Origin: an uncultured Planctomycetia bacterium
GTDB taxonomy: Bacteria; Omnitrophota; Gorgyraeia; S143-82
Direction of reading: 5' to 3'
DNA: 64,000 nt
Assembly (NCBI GenBank): GCA_964469495.1
Contig: CAYXYY010000030.1
Coordinates: 10,262 to 74,261 of the forward strand
The notes below the pieces were generated by a model that was not told the origin of the DNA, did not search any database, and saw only the letters and a program-made list of their open reading frames with translations. Of this stretch, positions 12,859 through 33,753 are shown in pieces. Position 1 is the stretch's first letter. Every line of letters starts with the position of its first letter. The position numbers were made by a program, and so were the translations under genes.

Positions 12859-13480
12859 TTACTACCCCTATCTCTACGGCATTGGTAATCCCGCTATGCC
12901 AAACCTCATCATGAGATATAACCAGAACCGTCCAGTCCTTTTTAGACAAAAACAGGCCCGCTGTTTTTTCTTTTAATCGCTTATCCAAAAATGCGGTTGG
13001 CTCGTCTAATATAAAAACATCTCTGTTCAAGCTCAATAAGGACACTATGCCAATTCTCTGCCTCTGGCCTCCTGACAAATCCATTATATCTTTATCCATA
13101 ATAGACAAAGGTAGTCCAAAAAAATCAAACCAGTTTTTTATATCCCCCATCTTATCTCCCAAATGGTGGTTTACACTGAAAGAAAAAAGGAATTCAAACC
13201 ACCCCCTAACACTTAACTGTGGCAGCGATACGTCTTGATCAAGGTAAGCGCACAACCTGCGCACATTGCAGATGGTATCAGGCGAGAGCTCATTGCCATT
13301 AAACAAAACGCTTCCTTTATCTGCCAATTCAATACCTAAAATAATCCTAAACAAGGTGCTTTTACCCGCGCCTGAACCTCCTTTTATCAGGACCTTTCCG
13401 CCCTTTTCCACGAACAGATTGAAATCCTGTAATACGGGTTCTTTCTTATAACTCTTGTATAATGACCTGCACTCTATCAC
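12839..13480 (-). CDS. ABC transporter ATP-binding protein (FetA-like).
   Basis: Walker A GGSGAGKST, signature LSGGQRQR, and Walker B ILDEP. 213 aa. Confidence 0.8.
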   Translation of the reverse strand: MIECRSLYKSYKKEPVLQDFNLFVEKGGKVLIKGGSGAGKSTLFRIILGIELADKGSVLFNGNELSPDTICNVRRLCAYLDQDVSLPQLSVRGWFEFLFSFSVNHHLGDKMGDIKNWFDFFGLPLSIMDKDIMDLSGGQRQRIGIVSLLSLNRDVFILDEPTAFLDKRLKEKTAGLFLSKKDWTVLVISHDEVWHSGITNAVEIGVVNDSRDR

Positions 13481-14217
13481 CGTCTTTCCACCATCTTTTT
13501 GAGTTGCTCTATCTCTCTTTGCCTAAGCAATCTAAACTCACCTTCTTTAAGCCTGCCAAGTCTGATTGGCCCAAAGGCAACCCTCAACAAGTCAATAACA
13601 GGATAACCCAAAAGCGCAAACATACGCCTTATCTGCCTTTTTTTACCCTCTTTCATAAACAGGCGAACAACTGTATGGTTCATAGAGGCGCGTTCCACCC
13701 GCGCCTTGCACGGCAAACCCTTAAAATCCGGAAACTCAAACCCGCTCTCTATCTTAGCGATAGCCTCTATTGGCAACCGTCCTTTTACCTTTACAAGATA
13801 TTCCTTTGTTATGCCGTATTTAGGATGCAGGAGTTTGTGTATAATTTCGCCGTCATCCGTAAATAAAAGCAGGCCTCTGGTATCCTTGTCTAATCTGCCA
13901 ACCGGTTTTAATTTGATATACTCATCAGGCAATAAATCCATGACAATCCTTTTGGCAAACCTGTCTTTGAGTGTCGTCGTATATCCCGCTGGTTTGTTCA
14001 AGATGCCGTACTGCAAAGACGGCAAAGATAACGTCTTGCCCTGAAACTCTACGATATCTCCAACAGAGACCTTTATGCCTATCTGATCCCTCTTAACCCT
14101 TGTGCCGTTAAAAAAGATTTGGCCACTCTTTATTGGTTTATCTGCCTGCCTCCGGGAACAACCAATAGACTTTGCAACAAAGGCATTTAGTCTTAACGGT
14201 TTGGCCTTAACGCTCAT
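13477..14217 (-). CDS. rRNA pseudouridine synthase of the RsuA/RluB/RluF family, with an N-terminal S4 domain.
   Basis: An S4-like N-terminus (RLNAFVAKSIGCSRRQADKPIKSG) is followed by the catalytic GRLDKDTRGLLLFTDDG motif. Confidence 0.8.
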   Translation of the reverse strand: MSVKAKPLRLNAFVAKSIGCSRRQADKPIKSGQIFFNGTRVKRDQIGIKVSVGDIVEFQGKTLSLPSLQYGILNKPAGYTTTLKDRFAKRIVMDLLPDEYIKLKPVGRLDKDTRGLLLFTDDGEIIHKLLHPKYGITKEYLVKVKGRLPIEAIAKIESGFEFPDFKGLPCKARVERASMNHTVVRLFMKEGKKRQIRRMFALLGYPVIDLLRVAFGPIRLGRLKEGEFRLLRQREIEQLKKMVERR

Positions 14218-14223
14218 CGCAGC

Positions 14224-14928
14224 CTATCCCGTGCTCCTGAAAAGCGCCCAATCCCCCTCTTGCATAATATATTCCTTGCCTTCCAACTTCAATCTCCCTG
14301 ACTGCCTTACTGCGGAAAGGCTGCCCAACTCTATTATGTCGTCATATTTTGCAATCTCTGCCCTGACAAAACCACGGGCAATATCCGTGTGTATAATGCC
14401 TGCGCATTCATGGGCAGTCTGGCCCAGACGAAACATCCATGCATGGGAATCCTTCTCCCCAGCTGTAAAAAATATACCTCGTCCGAAAATAGCCCACCAC
14501 AAGTCAGGCAAATCAGAGATCTGCGCGTTGCTATCTTCAAGAACAATATACGGAAGCAGGCTGTATATGGGATATTCATTTAACCTGCCTGCCTCATCCT
14601 GCGAGATATCACCCTGTTTTATGCCGTCATACAACGGCCTTTCACTCTCAAGCAATGCCATTGCCTTCTCCAATAATGCCTTGTCCTGAGAGGCCTCTTT
14701 GAGCTTCCTGTCTATAAAATCCATATCGTCAACGATCAGGTCAAAGAGCGCTTCCTGACTGCATATAATGCCTTCGCATGTATTTATCCTATCCTTGCCA
14801 AGAAAAAATGCGGATGCCGGCACGATTTCCTTTGATTTAAAAATCCCCTTCAAGGCCTTTAACCGATCATCTGGTATCTTAACCTTATTTTTAGGGAAGT
14901 TATCCAATCCCAAAACCGCTATATTCAT
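14224..14928 (-). CDS. YchF-like protein reduced to the helical insertion and the C-terminal TGS/DUF933 domain. The G-domain P-loop is missing.
   Basis: The C-terminus AGIIHTDIARGFVRAEIAKYDD...GRLKLEGKEYIMQEGD parallels the YchF TGS domain (IHTDFEKGFIRAE...EGKDYIVKDGD). The N-terminus MNIAVLGLDNFPKNK has no GxxxxGKS. There are only 234 aa, and the upstream gene's stop overlaps the start, so no missing exon is possible. Confidence 0.5.
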   Translation of the reverse strand: MNIAVLGLDNFPKNKVKIPDDRLKALKGIFKSKEIVPASAFFLGKDRINTCEGIICSQEALFDLIVDDMDFIDRKLKEASQDKALLEKAMALLESERPLYDGIKQGDISQDEAGRLNEYPIYSLLPYIVLEDSNAQISDLPDLWWAIFGRGIFFTAGEKDSHAWMFRLGQTAHECAGIIHTDIARGFVRAEIAKYDDIIELGSLSAVRQSGRLKLEGKEYIMQEGDWALFRSTG

Positions 14929-16643
14929 TTTGAGTTATCTCCTTTCTGCTCCCAAAAACTTACCACAGCCCTTAAACTTCCTGATGGACTATTATGCACA
15001 ATAAATCGCTCAAAGTAAAGCGTATCTGGATTGACCCATATGTTTATATAATCTCCATCCCTATCCTGAAATTTCAGGACTATCTTACCGTTATCCTTAA
15101 CAGATGCAATGAGTTTTGCGTTTGATAAAGCCCTGATAAGGCCTTGCAAAGAGAAGTTATCCAACATCTCCATCGCAGTTTTATACTGCGCGCTGTCTTT
15201 TTTTATCGGCGCTTGTCTTGAACCTTCTACTGAGAACAAATCATCTGCCTTGCGCCTGCAAGATATAAACAGGTATCCTGTGCCATCGAAGACCTTCCCC
15301 TGCATCTCCGCCTCTAAATCCGGCAAAAATTGGATAGAGGCCATTGCCTCTAATGCGCCGAATTGGCCTATTGGAATGGAAGAGTTTACCAATATAGCAT
15401 CTGCGCGATATCTCTTCCTGAAACGATTCGCATCTATAGCCTTTTGAATGTCTATTTCAGCGTTTGAACCATTCACCTCAAATCCGCCATACTCCAACGC
15501 CTTGATAAGCCAATCACCTGTTGTCTTAAGCTGAGAAAACATCTGTTTATCCACCCTTTGCAATACCAACATCTGATTACGCAAACAAGGGACATCCAGC
15601 CTATTTATACAATCCTGGGCAGTGACATAATATAAATAACCATCGTCAGGAGTATAGGATTTTAATCTTTGCAGCAGGCCCAAAAACTTGGCGCGCGAGT
15701 CTTTATCCTGCGGCATATCCGCATATACTCTGGCAAGAAGCCTGAGCATAGATATCTTGTGTTTTTTCCCATTAATGCGATTTAGATAAGACTCGCAAAT
15801 CTCTCTAACTTCTTTTGATTCCATTGCATTTGTTTCCAGCGACCACTTGGCGGAAGACTTGGCCACTATTCTTTTAAACTCCTTTGACTTATCGTCAATC
15901 CTGAGGCCCAACAAAAGCTGCCTGGCCGCCTCCTGTTTCTGGCGAGAACGAAAATCCCTGTCTTCGCCTTTAAGCATATCCAATAACTTAAGGTCTATAT
16001 CCTCATCTGAGACAATATGGCCTGACTTGTCCACCTTTATATCTAATTGCTTTAACAGATTCACAATACGTTTATCAGGATGGCCCCTATAATACACATA
16101 AAGCCTTGCAATACGTTGCGCCACTATATCATCGGAAAGCCACAGGTTTATAACCTTATGTACGATCTCTTTGTTCCCTGTGATAAAAAACTCTATCCAC
16201 AATACGTCCGGGTCCTGTTCAAAATCCGTAATATCTACCTTTTTTTGCGATTCAGCCTGTTTAATAACCTTTGCCCGCTCAGGGAACTCTTTTTTTAATT
16301 CAGCTAAGGCCTGCCTTGCCTGAAGGGTCCCTGCTTTACCCATTGCCAAAACCACCAAAGAAAATCCGGTTTTTGCAACCTTACGGGCCAAGTCCTTATA
16401 GTCTTTTGTCAAGTCAGGATATATCTGCAACATTCTTGCAAAACAATAAACCATAGGCATTATATCCCTGCCATTAAAAGCCCCTTTTTCCGCCTGACGG
16501 CACACTGCATTAAGCCCGGAAAGAACCTCAGATTTGTTCGGATTTTTATAAAATCCCCTTGGAAAGGCATTGCCAAAACCGCTATTAATAAATCCGAAGA
16601 AAATGGAAAACACCAACAAAAACACAAACCGTTTTTTAATCAT
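14925..16643 (-). CDS. Hypothetical secreted protein (572 aa) with an N-terminal signal peptide.
   Basis: Long ORF whose hydrophobic N-terminus (VFLLVFSIFFGFINSGFG) looks like a signal peptide. I recognise no catalytic motif. Confidence 0.45.
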   Translation of the reverse strand: MIKKRFVFLLVFSIFFGFINSGFGNAFPRGFYKNPNKSEVLSGLNAVCRQAEKGAFNGRDIMPMVYCFARMLQIYPDLTKDYKDLARKVAKTGFSLVVLAMGKAGTLQARQALAELKKEFPERAKVIKQAESQKKVDITDFEQDPDVLWIEFFITGNKEIVHKVINLWLSDDIVAQRIARLYVYYRGHPDKRIVNLLKQLDIKVDKSGHIVSDEDIDLKLLDMLKGEDRDFRSRQKQEAARQLLLGLRIDDKSKEFKRIVAKSSAKWSLETNAMESKEVREICESYLNRINGKKHKISMLRLLARVYADMPQDKDSRAKFLGLLQRLKSYTPDDGYLYYVTAQDCINRLDVPCLRNQMLVLQRVDKQMFSQLKTTGDWLIKALEYGGFEVNGSNAEIDIQKAIDANRFRKRYRADAILVNSSIPIGQFGALEAMASIQFLPDLEAEMQGKVFDGTGYLFISCRRKADDLFSVEGSRQAPIKKDSAQYKTAMEMLDNFSLQGLIRALSNAKLIASVKDNGKIVLKFQDRDGDYINIWVNPDTLYFERFIVHNSPSGSLRAVVSFWEQKGDNSK

Positions 16644-31053: not shown

Positions 31054-33753
31054 CTAAAACTGCTTTTCATACACTAATCTAAAAATATGCCTCGTATCCA
31101 ATGCGCTCATATGCCAGTAATCGCTGTCCGAATCATATCCGGCATATTCTCCCCACATCGCCTTTAGATATTCTTCTTCTGAGAAATTATATTTATATCC
31201 CACAAAAAAGTTGTTGTGAGACTCGTAATCCAAATTTCCTTCTATTTCATACTTATACACGTCGTATAAACGTGAATACGTATATGAGAAAAACATCTCT
31301 GCCTTTGGTCCGAGTTTATATAATGCCTCAAACCCAAAGTGACTGCCATTGTCGTCTATGCCCGGCATTGCATATTTATTCTGGTTCTTTGTAAAAGAAA
31401 ACGTAAGCTGTAAATCCTCTAACGGAGTTAAACCAGTCTTCATTTTTATTATATGATAATAATCATATGGGGGCAAGCCAAATATGCTCTGATCGTATAA
31501 AAAAGGAACAATTTTATCCCACATATAATCGCCTATTATTTCATCTGTGACATAAGTGCTGCACAAAAGTACCCTTGGGAAAACCATAGGGTCATTTGTC
31601 TCTTCAAAACCGAGTTCAAAATAGGCATTATCGTCGATATCATAACGGCCGGCTATACCAAAATGGCCGATAGAAGGATCCTTTCCCGCCTCTATTGCCG
31701 TGTTTTGCAAAGCCTCATTTTGCCCGCTGTAATAGTCGCTGATGTCATATAGGTTGTCCGCATAGATTAACGGGTCCTTATCAACCTCTGTATCAGGCAA
31801 TGCCTTATACCAAGCCAAGGCTTTCAATGTTAACTTATCAACAGGTGAAGCCGTTGCCTCTAATCTGCCAAGGGTCTCTATGGGAACGCCTCCATCACTA
31901 TGGACGTTTCTGACAAACACGTCCCAATTCGTATTCCATAAATCGAAATTCGCATATATCCCGGCAGCGGACCTGCCTCTGTCTATCCCATCGCCATAAG
32001 TCTCTATGCCTTTCTTGCGATTTTCTTCTTCGTCAAAGGTTATGTGCTTGCTCGCCTCTGTCTCTATCCTCGTATATCTATATGAGGAAAGTCCCGGTGA
32101 AAATTTATCTCCCATATAGTTATAGTAAAATTCTATTTTATTAATAGGCCAATGCAATGGTTGGAATTTTATTCCATATGCATAATCATCATAATACGTT
32201 TTCGTATCGTTGGCTTCATCAATTGTTGAAGAACTGTGGGCAACCTCACCTGATACCAAAACACCAAACAATTGTTTTGCCCCATCAATAGCCCACACAT
32301 AATTTTCAGCCTCAAGGTCATCACTGTCATTGAATCCCAGCTTTGAACTAAAAAAGGCTCCTATATAATCATTGGAATCGTCCTCAAAATAATATTTCCA
32401 ACGCGTTGCCCCGTCCAATGAATTGACATCTGAATAATCATCCCACAATGTCATAGGCAAGGCAATTGTGGCTTGCCCTTCAACAGAACCTTCTTTAATA
32501 GAAAAGCTGGCTCCCCTTAAATACGTAAGCCTTTCCCATTCACTATCACGAACGTATGCAGATATATTATGCTGCCATTTCCCTCCTTTAAGCGGATATC
32601 CAGGCCTTAAAAACCTACGGCTTGGGCTATACGTATCTATCCACGGGCTTTCTTCCCAATCTTTCCTATTATCAGAAAGCCGCATAAGATCGTCGCTCTT
32701 CAACGCCTCTTGCTGCGATGAAATCAGAAATACTTTGCCGCTAAATCCATCCGATTCATTTCCGTAATCAAACCATAGTTTTCTGATTATATTCCACCTC
32801 TCGTGGAGATCTTCCCCCCCAATTGTATTGAAATCAGTGTACCAATCATAAATACCCGTTGGAGTGTATGGAGAAAGTTTTCCATCAACTACCTTGATAT
32901 TGTTAAAAACCAATATATTGCCATATTTTGTCCTGAATGTTTCATTCATTGTCTGCCCGGTTGCAAAGAAATATTTCAATCTAACATTTGCTGAATCCAA
33001 ACCATTCGTACTTGTCACCTCGGCATCTATTGTGCCAACGTATGACCATGGGTCCAAAACTAATTGCGCATACAAATTTATCGCATCAGAAAAATCTGTA
33101 TCTATATTTAGTTCCAGTCTATCATAGACCTTTGGATCAAACGTATTTTCATGTTCTTCACCCCAGATATAGCGCCAGTTCTTCTCGTATGGAACAGCAT
33201 TCTTATCCGGATTGGCATCCTTCCATAGTATATCTCCGTCGGAATTCACCTCCCCTGCCAATCTGATCTTACCTGTTATATGGACATTAGAATCGGTTTT
33301 ATCCTCTGCAGACTCACTCGGCATGTGTGTTATAGGCGCAGGTTTTTTAGGAGATATTTCTGAAGGGCTTTGCATAACCTTATTCGATCCTGCAGCCAGT
33401 TTCTGTTCCATATACGCCTTCATTGCAAACCTGCCTGCGTTTTCTTCTTCATGCAAGGCCCTTTCCCCCTCTTCCAAACTCGCCAAAAAATCTGCCATTG
33501 CAACCTTTTTTTTCTGCTCCTCGCATAAGATTTCAACACCTTTTAGAGACACAATAACAGCCAATGCTTCTTTATTTTCCGGATCTTGATCTAATGCAGA
33601 TAATGCATCTTCATAGGCTGATTGATAGTCTTTCATGGCAAATTCCTCTTTGGCAAGTTGGGCATAATAACTTGCCTGACTAGCCCTTGCAATTCCCTGC
33701 GCCAAAAACGTTATCAATAAAAAAAATAATAAAACTCTTTCTATTCTAAACAC
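31054..33753 (-). CDS. Large secreted protein (899 aa) with an N-terminal TPR-like segment and an aromatic C-terminus. It is probably an outer-membrane beta-barrel.
   Basis: It has a signal peptide and ends ...RLVYEKQF. The C-terminal half is rich in Y/W/G/D, as in beta-barrels. It is the first gene of the glycan-utilisation-like cluster. Confidence 0.4.
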   Translation of the reverse strand: MFRIERVLLFFLLITFLAQGIARASQASYYAQLAKEEFAMKDYQSAYEDALSALDQDPENKEALAVIVSLKGVEILCEEQKKKVAMADFLASLEEGERALHEEENAGRFAMKAYMEQKLAAGSNKVMQSPSEISPKKPAPITHMPSESAEDKTDSNVHITGKIRLAGEVNSDGDILWKDANPDKNAVPYEKNWRYIWGEEHENTFDPKVYDRLELNIDTDFSDAINLYAQLVLDPWSYVGTIDAEVTSTNGLDSANVRLKYFFATGQTMNETFRTKYGNILVFNNIKVVDGKLSPYTPTGIYDWYTDFNTIGGEDLHERWNIIRKLWFDYGNESDGFSGKVFLISSQQEALKSDDLMRLSDNRKDWEESPWIDTYSPSRRFLRPGYPLKGGKWQHNISAYVRDSEWERLTYLRGASFSIKEGSVEGQATIALPMTLWDDYSDVNSLDGATRWKYYFEDDSNDYIGAFFSSKLGFNDSDDLEAENYVWAIDGAKQLFGVLVSGEVAHSSSTIDEANDTKTYYDDYAYGIKFQPLHWPINKIEFYYNYMGDKFSPGLSSYRYTRIETEASKHITFDEEENRKKGIETYGDGIDRGRSAAGIYANFDLWNTNWDVFVRNVHSDGGVPIETLGRLEATASPVDKLTLKALAWYKALPDTEVDKDPLIYADNLYDISDYYSGQNEALQNTAIEAGKDPSIGHFGIAGRYDIDDNAYFELGFEETNDPMVFPRVLLCSTYVTDEIIGDYMWDKIVPFLYDQSIFGLPPYDYYHIIKMKTGLTPLEDLQLTFSFTKNQNKYAMPGIDDNGSHFGFEALYKLGPKAEMFFSYTYSRLYDVYKYEIEGNLDYESHNNFFVGYKYNFSEEEYLKAMWGEYAGYDSDSDYWHMSALDTRHIFRLVYEKQF

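Follow-up and report, generated by a model that had tools for sequence, protein, structure and literature searches.

A conserved miniature of YchF without nucleotide-binding motifs in Omnitrophota

YchF/OLA1 is among the small number of proteins kept by almost all cells, yet what it essentially does and why it has an ATPase cycle remain a matter of debate. YchF is encoded in 99.4% of the bacterial genomes outside the candidate phyla radiation (CPR) and in 97.0% of those within it, and is one of the bac120 markers (supplement of PMC12641178). In a 64,000-nucleotide stretch of contig CAYXYY010000030.1 (assembly GCA_964469495.1, assigned to Omnitrophota in GTDB), the minus strand carries a gene for a YchF homologue, which we call mini-YchF. 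This whole stretch is referred to as the window, and coordinates are given in its numbering. The locus raises the question of what remains of YchF when its ATPase is taken away, and of whether this remainder is a working protein. We found that mini-YchF is an intact, colinear miniature of the entire YchF fold with five in-frame deletions. It is probably a functional, lineage-specific descendant of YchF/OLA1 in Omnitrophota, acting as a pseudo-ATPase that would bind ribosomes or RNA independently of nucleotides.

A colinear miniature of the YchF fold

The open reading frame (ORF) of mini-YchF is uninterrupted, with an ATG start, 234 codons and a stop at 14224-14226. Its ATG (14928-14926) overlaps the TGA stop (14927-14925) of an upstream 572-codon ORF in the form of an ATGA. 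A Shine-Dalgarno sequence is located 10 nucleotides upstream of the ATG, within the 3′ end of the upstream gene. A first-pass annotation of the window had proposed a 234-residue ORF with such an overlap, and both features were found as described. The strings that it quoted are also all present, with MNIAVLGLDNFPKNK at residues 1-15, HTDIARGFVRAEI at residues 180-192 and EGKEYIMQEGD at residues 216-226. An identical protein (P0001) is encoded on independent contigs from the Joint Genome Institute (JGI) and from Logan.

YchF/OLA1 (TIGR00092) belongs to the Obg family of TRAFAC P-loop NTPases. It is represented for instance by the H. influenzae (1JAL) and rice (OsYchF1, 5EE0) structures and by E. 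coli YchF on the 50S subunit (8W51/8KIE). In mini-YchF, the Pfam family PF06071 (YchF-GTPase_C, DUF933) matches residues 153-231 with an E-value of 6.9e-29 (100.2 bits for a cut-off of 27), confirming the C-terminal TGS/DUF933 domain of the first-pass annotation. No match to PF01926 (MMR_HSR1) or to any other P-loop family was obtained with Pfam, even at E <= 1. The NCBIfam equivalog model TIGR00092 covers residues 153-232 only, with 103 bits, below its cut-off of 279.2. The top sequence match in the PDB is H. influenzae YchF (1jal_A; residues 145-231, E = 1.7e-20) and the other best solved relatives are YchF/OLA1 structures, likewise matched over residues 145-231 only. Identity of the TGS domain to those of canonical YchFs is 47-58%.

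Alignment of a profile of the short family with a canonical YchF profile (hhalign) gave a probability of 100 and an E-value of 8.2e-48, residues 14-233 being colinear with 43-365 of YchF. In sequence searches, residues 16-43 correspond to YchF 44-71. Clear homology to the active enzymes thus runs along the whole length of the protein and includes the alpha-helical coiled-coil domain inserted in the G domain, a resemblance that the first-pass annotation had suspected. The same annotation had described the protein as reduced to the helical insertion and the TGS domain. Both domains are there, but the reduction is not to them, since the colinear alignment also contains remnants of the G domain. 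Mini-YchF and YchF/OLA1 have in common the C-terminal TGS domain, the inserted helical hairpin and the order of the lobes, together with conserved motifs that lie outside the nucleotide pocket, namely PDxRL, ELxLxD, FFTxG, IHxDxxxGFxRAE, EGKxY and GD. A much weaker match, with 15-17% identity, was obtained with the archaeal YchF-related GTPase (PRK09602; Pyrococcus horikoshii PH0525, 1WXQ) and with DRG/Rbg. The PRK09602 match has an E-value of 0.014 over 36 residues. Unlike mini-YchF, the GTPases of these two types retain a working G domain.

The deletions were mapped with a joint MAFFT alignment of the short family and canonical YchF, and with the hhalign gaps. The first G-domain remnant (residues 1-57) contains strand 1, a degenerate P-loop position and a conserved VKIPDxRL hairpin. 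At the P-loop position, mini-YchF has GLDNFPKNK in place of the canonical GLPNVGKST. The first deletion, of about 27 residues after GLDNFPK, has taken away the GK[ST] of Walker A, helix 1 and switch I. The second one (18 residues) has removed the G3 motif DxxG and switch II. The third one (22 residues, RCFxDxxIxHVxGxVDPxxD) lies directly before the helical domain and corresponds to the loop of His114, a residue needed for ATP hydrolysis (as cited in PMC11814078). The fourth one (11-12 residues) shortens the tip of the helical hairpin. In mini-YchF this tip has 18 residues, five of them lysine or arginine, and a net charge of 0, versus 29 residues, eight lysines or arginines and a net charge of +2 in canonical YchF; it is no longer net basic. 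The fifth deletion, of about 59 residues, starts at the G4 position, where mini-YchF reads IVLEDSN, and has removed the G4 motif NxxE, G5 and helices 6 and 7. In YchF, G4 is defined as N(M/L/V)xE (PMC11814078).

Overall, 234 residues remain as compared to about 363 in YchF/OLA1, without Walker A, switch I (G2), G3 and switch II, His114, G4 or G5. The absence of Walker A noted in the first-pass annotation is therefore real, but the loss of the P-loop that it reported is only part of what has been deleted. As every nucleotide motif is lost, mini-YchF is predicted to have no ATPase activity. As these deletions are internal and scattered, no G domain encoded elsewhere could make up for them. With all nucleotide-related features missing and the equivalog cut-off not reached, the protein is better filed as a YchF-derived pseudo-ATPase than as YchF.

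Most family members carry a GK dipeptide at residues 14-15, the family consensus being G-x6-GK followed by a strand instead of a helix, and not GxxxxGK[ST]. This dipeptide was considered as a residual Walker A motif and rejected. By register counting and by hhalign, G14 aligns with the canonical glycine located six residues before the PD of VxVPDxRL, at the end of switch I. Given this register and the strand found there in both structural models, K15 is not a displaced Walker lysine.

A frameshifted or split gene was also rejected. When a canonical YchF hidden Markov model was run on the six frames of the whole window, only the mini-YchF ORF and, weakly, an Obg gene were matched, with no G-domain piece upstream or elsewhere, in agreement with the first-pass annotation. 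The same search in all the fetched loci yielded no extra G-domain piece.

Two AlphaFold predictions were obtained. With an alignment dominated by canonical YchFs, the mean predicted local distance difference test (pLDDT) was 96.0 and the predicted template modelling score (pTM) 0.86. With an alignment of 53 short-family sequences only, the values were 96.8 and 0.88. Both predictions agree on one compact fold, with strands at residues 2-6, 15-17, 34-36, 39-43, 53-57 and 127-130 (those of residues 1-57 at pLDDT > 90) and helices at 58-77, 83-94, 99-104, 110-116 and 144-148. The model superposes on YchF at 218 of the 234 residues, with its three lobes in the same order and relative position. After YchF, the closest structural matches are the TGS domains of RelA/SpoT and of threonyl-tRNA synthetase (ThrRS). 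In these models, the remaining strands form a small beta-sheet core that links the helical domain (58-116) to the TGS domain (151-234) in the YchF arrangement.

Conservation, selection and taxonomic range

Close relatives of mini-YchF form 12 clusters of matching length, 11 of them at 63-80% identity and one at 36%. A full-length family profile retrieved at least 53 clusters of 224-236 residues, scoring 245-307 bits; after a gap, canonical YchFs follow at 206 bits or less. With a profile of the N-terminal 147 residues, 201 representatives were found at E <= 1e-3 among 1.84 billion. These matches are mostly proteins of 222-236 residues and their fragments, canonical YchFs not appearing before about E = 1e-9. 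Across the 53 or more clusters, which come from many assemblies, the length and all five in-frame deletions are the same.

In the G-domain remnant, K15 is conserved at 98%, D20 at 90% and R22 at 92%. In the helical part, D68 is invariant, D63 is invariant or nearly so, and L93, E94 and E96 are conserved at 90-98%. P126, in the region of the return strand, is conserved at 98%. The TGS residues F153, T155, H180, G186 and F187 are invariant across the family. Most of the invariant or near-invariant residues of the remnant and of the helical part, except K15, are also conserved in canonical YchF. The ratio of non-synonymous to synonymous substitution rates (dN/dS) between the genes of loci L004 and L005 is 0.069, the N-terminal part having 0.086 and the TGS domain 0.026. 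This is the only pair giving a finite ratio, because dS is saturated between the window gene and all available relatives (dN 0.16-0.32). Overall, the mini-YchF gene is maintained by purifying selection and is not a pseudogene. The first-pass annotation had taken the gene as intact and its product as a pseudo-ATPase. The uninterrupted ORF, with no frameshift that would restore a G domain and no fragment of one in any frame, agrees with the former, and the conservation of the short form under purifying selection makes the latter a fair description.

Other proteins of the YchF family have a shortened or motif-decayed G domain. P0258 (320 residues), P0253 (280 residues) and the 357-residue Verrucomicrobiota proteins P0214/P0388 are the canonical-length or intermediate proteins nearest to the N-terminal profile of the short family. 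Unlike mini-YchF, they keep the P-loop (GRPGVGKST, GLPGAGKKT and GAPRSGKST, respectively) and most of the G domain, and their taxonomy is different or unknown. P0253 lacks DxxG. So do P0214/P0388, labelled 'DUF933 domain-containing proteins', which keep Walker A and have no PF01926 match. P0208 (337 residues) and P0202 (344 residues) are further shortened variants. Such proteins could represent stages in the decay of the G domain, either independent ones or intermediates.

In a genome scan, four GTDB species representatives turned out to carry the close subfamily, and each of them is named 'Candidatus Omnitrophota bacterium'. The only two members with an NCBI name ('MAG: DUF933 domain-containing protein [Candidatus Omnitrophica bacterium]') share just 31-33% identity with the window protein, showing that the family spans deep Omnitrophota branches. 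No member from another phylum was identified, all those with a name (four from GTDB, two from NCBI) being Omnitrophota. Databases list this P-loop-less form of YchF only as a 'DUF933 domain-containing protein'. The searchable literature library gave no description of a YchF without P-loop, and no paper joining pseudoGTPase and YchF. The first-pass annotation did not recognise a described family. This holds for papers, but not wholly for databases, as NCBI already labels members.

Canonical-length YchF does occur in class Omnitrophia. Among the markers listed in the raw CheckM data that Seymour et al. published in 2023, PF06071 covers positions 284-366 for JZ_2.bins.210 and 299-382 for GCA_001804005.1 (class Omnitrophia, genus Omnitrophus) (PMC10066038). 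TIGR00092 is present for genomes 104 and 194 and not for genome 190 (65-70% complete), among the three genomes listed (PMC10066038). Together with the sharp score gap between the short family and canonical YchF, as expected of an old divergence, these proteins would suit another reading, where mini-YchF shares its genomes with a canonical YchF that hydrolyses ATP and has a role alongside it, such as regulation or competition for the same site on the ribosome. We regard such a paralogue, the word used in the first-pass annotation, as unlikely. The canonical examples belong to class Omnitrophia, and in no genome are both forms shown together. Around the short genes, neither the window (64 kb) nor the fetched loci (about 280 kb) contained a canonical ychF, a weak argument given the size sampled. 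A protein search seeded with the canonical-length proteins nearest to the short family returned no YchF named as Omnitrophota. Contigs of the short-form genomes were not found in the available part of the supplements of PMC10066038. When Seymour et al. removed three markers from the CheckM general bacterial set as systematically missing, PF06071 was not among these, an indirect point that fits, without proving it, one PF06071 protein per genome (PMC10066038). It is more probable than not that genomes with mini-YchF have no other YchF homologue.

Proposed function and gene neighbourhood

E. coli YchF binds the 50S subunit at uL14, bL19 and H62, chiefly by its helical domain and in a non-hydrolysed state (PMC11814078). 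It raises the free-subunit peaks equally with ATP and with AMPPNP (adenylyl-imidodiphosphate), showing that hydrolysis is unnecessary for this effect, and the TGS domain has been proposed as the first contact with a stalled ribosome (PMC11814078). The model that we favour for mini-YchF starts from these properties. The five in-frame deletions have removed the whole nucleotide-binding and hydrolysis apparatus and the basic coiled-coil tip, and in the predicted fold the leftover beta-sheet core keeps the helical and TGS domains in the YchF arrangement. Mini-YchF would neither bind nor hydrolyse ATP. It would bind the ribosome or RNA through the cleft between the helical and TGS domains whatever the nucleotide, and would constitutively perform the hydrolysis-independent part of the YchF role, either subunit anti-association or the handling of stalled or idle ribosomes. 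In a distant branch of the family, it may act with EF-G, which is encoded just upstream.

RsfS and eIF6 are passive anti-association factors that bind uL14 and block subunit joining without energy. They share no sequence or fold with mini-YchF, and a likeness in mode of action would hold only if mini-YchF binds uL14/bL19 as E. coli YchF does. In concept, mini-YchF resembles pseudo-GTPases and other pseudo-enzymes, as a conserved homologue of an active NTPase without the catalytic motifs.

In the window, mini-YchF is part of a tight gene array, whose order along the minus strand is the 572-residue protein, mini-YchF, an S4-domain pseudouridine synthase, an ABC (ATP-binding cassette) ATPase and a UPF0014 permease (coordinates in Table 1). 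The pseudouridine synthase gene begins 6 nucleotides past the mini-YchF stop and is the same neighbour in loci L001, L002 and L014-L016. In L014-L016, a 569-residue counterpart of the 572-residue protein is found upstream, 115 nucleotides apart from mini-YchF. The trio made of the 572-residue type of protein, mini-YchF and the pseudouridine synthase is retained in relatives at 80% identity. In L004, tyrS (tyrosyl-tRNA synthetase) is directly upstream of mini-YchF. L005 matches L004 in the layout of its ORFs.

The distant branch has another arrangement: a lysine-2,3-aminomutase-like radical SAM gene, EF-G, mini-YchF, purH, folC and mnmE. EF-G is directly upstream of mini-YchF in five of six loci (L017, L018, L019, L021 and L022), with gaps of 0-64 nucleotides, and in L017-L021 mnmE is found two genes downstream. 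NF009381 gives 820-874 bits for the two EF-G copies that were scanned, both of full length. These EF-G genes stand outside any visible str-operon context, and two ATP-grasp genes are also found upstream. EF-G and mini-YchF may form a functional pair in this branch. No EF-G-like gene was found among the large ORFs of the window. Overall, the recurrent neighbours of mini-YchF are translation genes, though no partner is universal.

Several points weigh against a ribosome-bound, nucleotide-independent mini-YchF. Ribosome binding is deduced from homology and gene neighbourhood alone. The 50S contacts of E. coli YchF involve a Lys-rich tip (K149/152/156/159) touching H62 and the tip after helix 7 (PMC11814078). 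Both elements are deleted or weakened in mini-YchF, so that the E. coli binding mode is not simply transferable. Canonical YchF binds ribosomes in a nucleotide-dependent conformation that a form without pocket might not adopt. In the window's own subfamily, which has varying neighbours, mini-YchF is not adjacent to EF-G. Finally, the dN/dS value comes from a single unsaturated pair of relatives.

The loss of the 50S-contacting basic tip and helix 7 could also mean that the scaffold has been repurposed off the ribosome, as a protein-protein adaptor or as a binder of tRNA or small RNA through the TGS domain. Such a change of role would agree with the 98% conservation of Lys 15, lacking in canonical YchF, with the heterogeneous neighbours in the window's subfamily, such as the secreted 572-residue protein and the ABC transporter, and with RelA/SpoT and ThrRS TGS domains as next-best structural matches. 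We nonetheless hold it to be improbable. The helical and TGS residues in common with canonical YchF (D20, R22, D68, L93, H180, GF(I/V)RAE, EGK.Y and GD) stay conserved, which speaks for an ancestral interaction surface that has been kept. Moreover, the genes that recur beside mini-YchF (EF-G, tyrS, the rluB-type gene and mnmE) belong to translation. A decaying pseudogene, or a normal ychF disturbed by an assembly or frameshift artefact, as a protein far shorter than YchF in metagenome-assembled DNA might suggest, has almost no chance of being correct in view of the identical protein on independent JGI and Logan contigs, the equal length and five deletions across at least 53 clusters from many assemblies, the dN/dS of 0.069, the Shine-Dalgarno sequence and ATGA overlap, the lack of a G-domain fragment in any frame and the compact predicted fold at pLDDT 96-97.

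Table 1. Features of the mini-YchF locus, of related loci and of the rest of the window (window numbering, except for the EF-G genes, given by locus).
Feature	Position	Strand	Evidence or remark
mini-YchF gene, 234 residues and stop codon	14224..14928	-	ORF list, PF06071 match, hhalign to canonical YchF
Shine-Dalgarno AAGGAG of mini-YchF	14939..14944	-	read off the sequence
Residues 1-57, first G-domain remnant	14758..14928	-	MAFFT, hhalign, AlphaFold strands
Residues 58-116, shortened alpha-helical (coiled-coil) domain	14581..14757	-	hhalign, MAFFT, predicted helices
Residues 117-150, return strand of G-domain remnant (LLPYIVLED) and short linker	14479..14580	-	MAFFT, hhalign gaps
Residues 151-234, YchF-type TGS domain (PF06071/DUF933), wholly kept	14227..14478	-	Pfam, identity, conservation
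572-residue protein, hydrophobic signal-peptide-like N-terminus	14925..16643	-	no domain match; stop overlaps mini-YchF start
S4-domain pseudouridine synthase (RsuA/RluB type), rRNA-modifying enzyme	13477..14217	-	PF00849 E = 8.2e-25, S4 E = 1e-4
EF-G genes of the distant branch, 652-665 residues	L017 8029-9990; L018 2030-3991; L019 2019-3977; L021 1-1095; L022 2003-4000		
FeoA-FeoB-like fusion, 664 residues	17322..19316	-	FeoA clear, FeoB_Cyto and FeoB_C weak
Obg GTPase, 324 residues	48290..49264	-	GTP1_OBG and MMR_HSR1
FliD-like flagellar cap protein, 1494 residues	55827..60311	-	FliD_N and FliD_C
899-residue ORF	31054..33753	-	no Pfam match at E <= 1e-5

Other P-loop proteins and the meaning of mini-YchF

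Two genes from mini-YchF, the window encodes a FeoA-FeoB-like fusion in which the FeoA part (residues 7-78) is clear. Its FeoB G domain (PF02421) was not detected, though this model does match the window's Obg protein. Visual inspection shows degenerate sequences at the places of Walker A (GRVDVDN), G3 and G4. A 663-residue counterpart in L014-L016 shows FeoA only. Like mini-YchF, the fusion may be a P-loop protein whose G domain is dead. The Obg GTPase of the window is normal, indicating that P-loop decay is not general to the Obg family in this genome. Among the other genes of the window, the FliD-like protein is several times longer than usual FliD. About 1000 residues, including flagellin-IN motifs and a galactose-binding-like domain, are inserted between its FliD_N and FliD_C ends. 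The 899-residue ORF has no domain match at the threshold given in Table 1.

At the scale of the phylum, one marker of interest is TIGR03594, which we take to be the ribosome-assembly GTPase Der/EngA. Seymour et al. report the CheckM markers TIGR03594, PF13603 and PF02978 as systematically missing in Omnitrophota (PMC10066038). Omnitrophota also have fewer ribosome-biogenesis factors than CPR bacteria (PMC12641178). Taken with mini-YchF, these observations hint at a phylum-wide reduction of ribosome-associated GTPases. We tentatively suggest that, in a large Omnitrophota clade, YchF may have been replaced by a nucleotide-free miniature as its sole homologue, the core function being that of an ATP-independent helical and TGS ribosome scaffold, coupled in part of the clade to a dedicated EF-G, within a wider remodelling of P-loop regulators to which the reported lack of Der/EngA and the FeoB-like protein of the window would also belong; this broader view is somewhat less probable than not.

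The short form matches PF06071, a CheckM marker, and would be scored 'present' by it, yet fails the TIGR00092 cut-off, so that tools using one or the other model should score these genomes differently. This mismatch may be why the loss of the ATPase passed unremarked. Mini-YchF can be seen as a natural separation-of-function allele, that is, a strongly conserved version of YchF without the nucleotide pocket. It indicates which surfaces are kept once the ATPase is discarded, namely the body of the helical hairpin, the TGS domain and the PDxRL hairpin, and which elements are dispensable in this protein: the pocket, the His114 loop, the basic tip and helix 7. As a small protein that is predicted to be well folded, it would be useful for ribosome-binding and structural work. 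Its interest will rise if it proves to be the sole YchF homologue in these bacteria. In that case, the selectable core of YchF would be an ATP-independent scaffold, made of the helical and TGS domains and acting on the ribosome.

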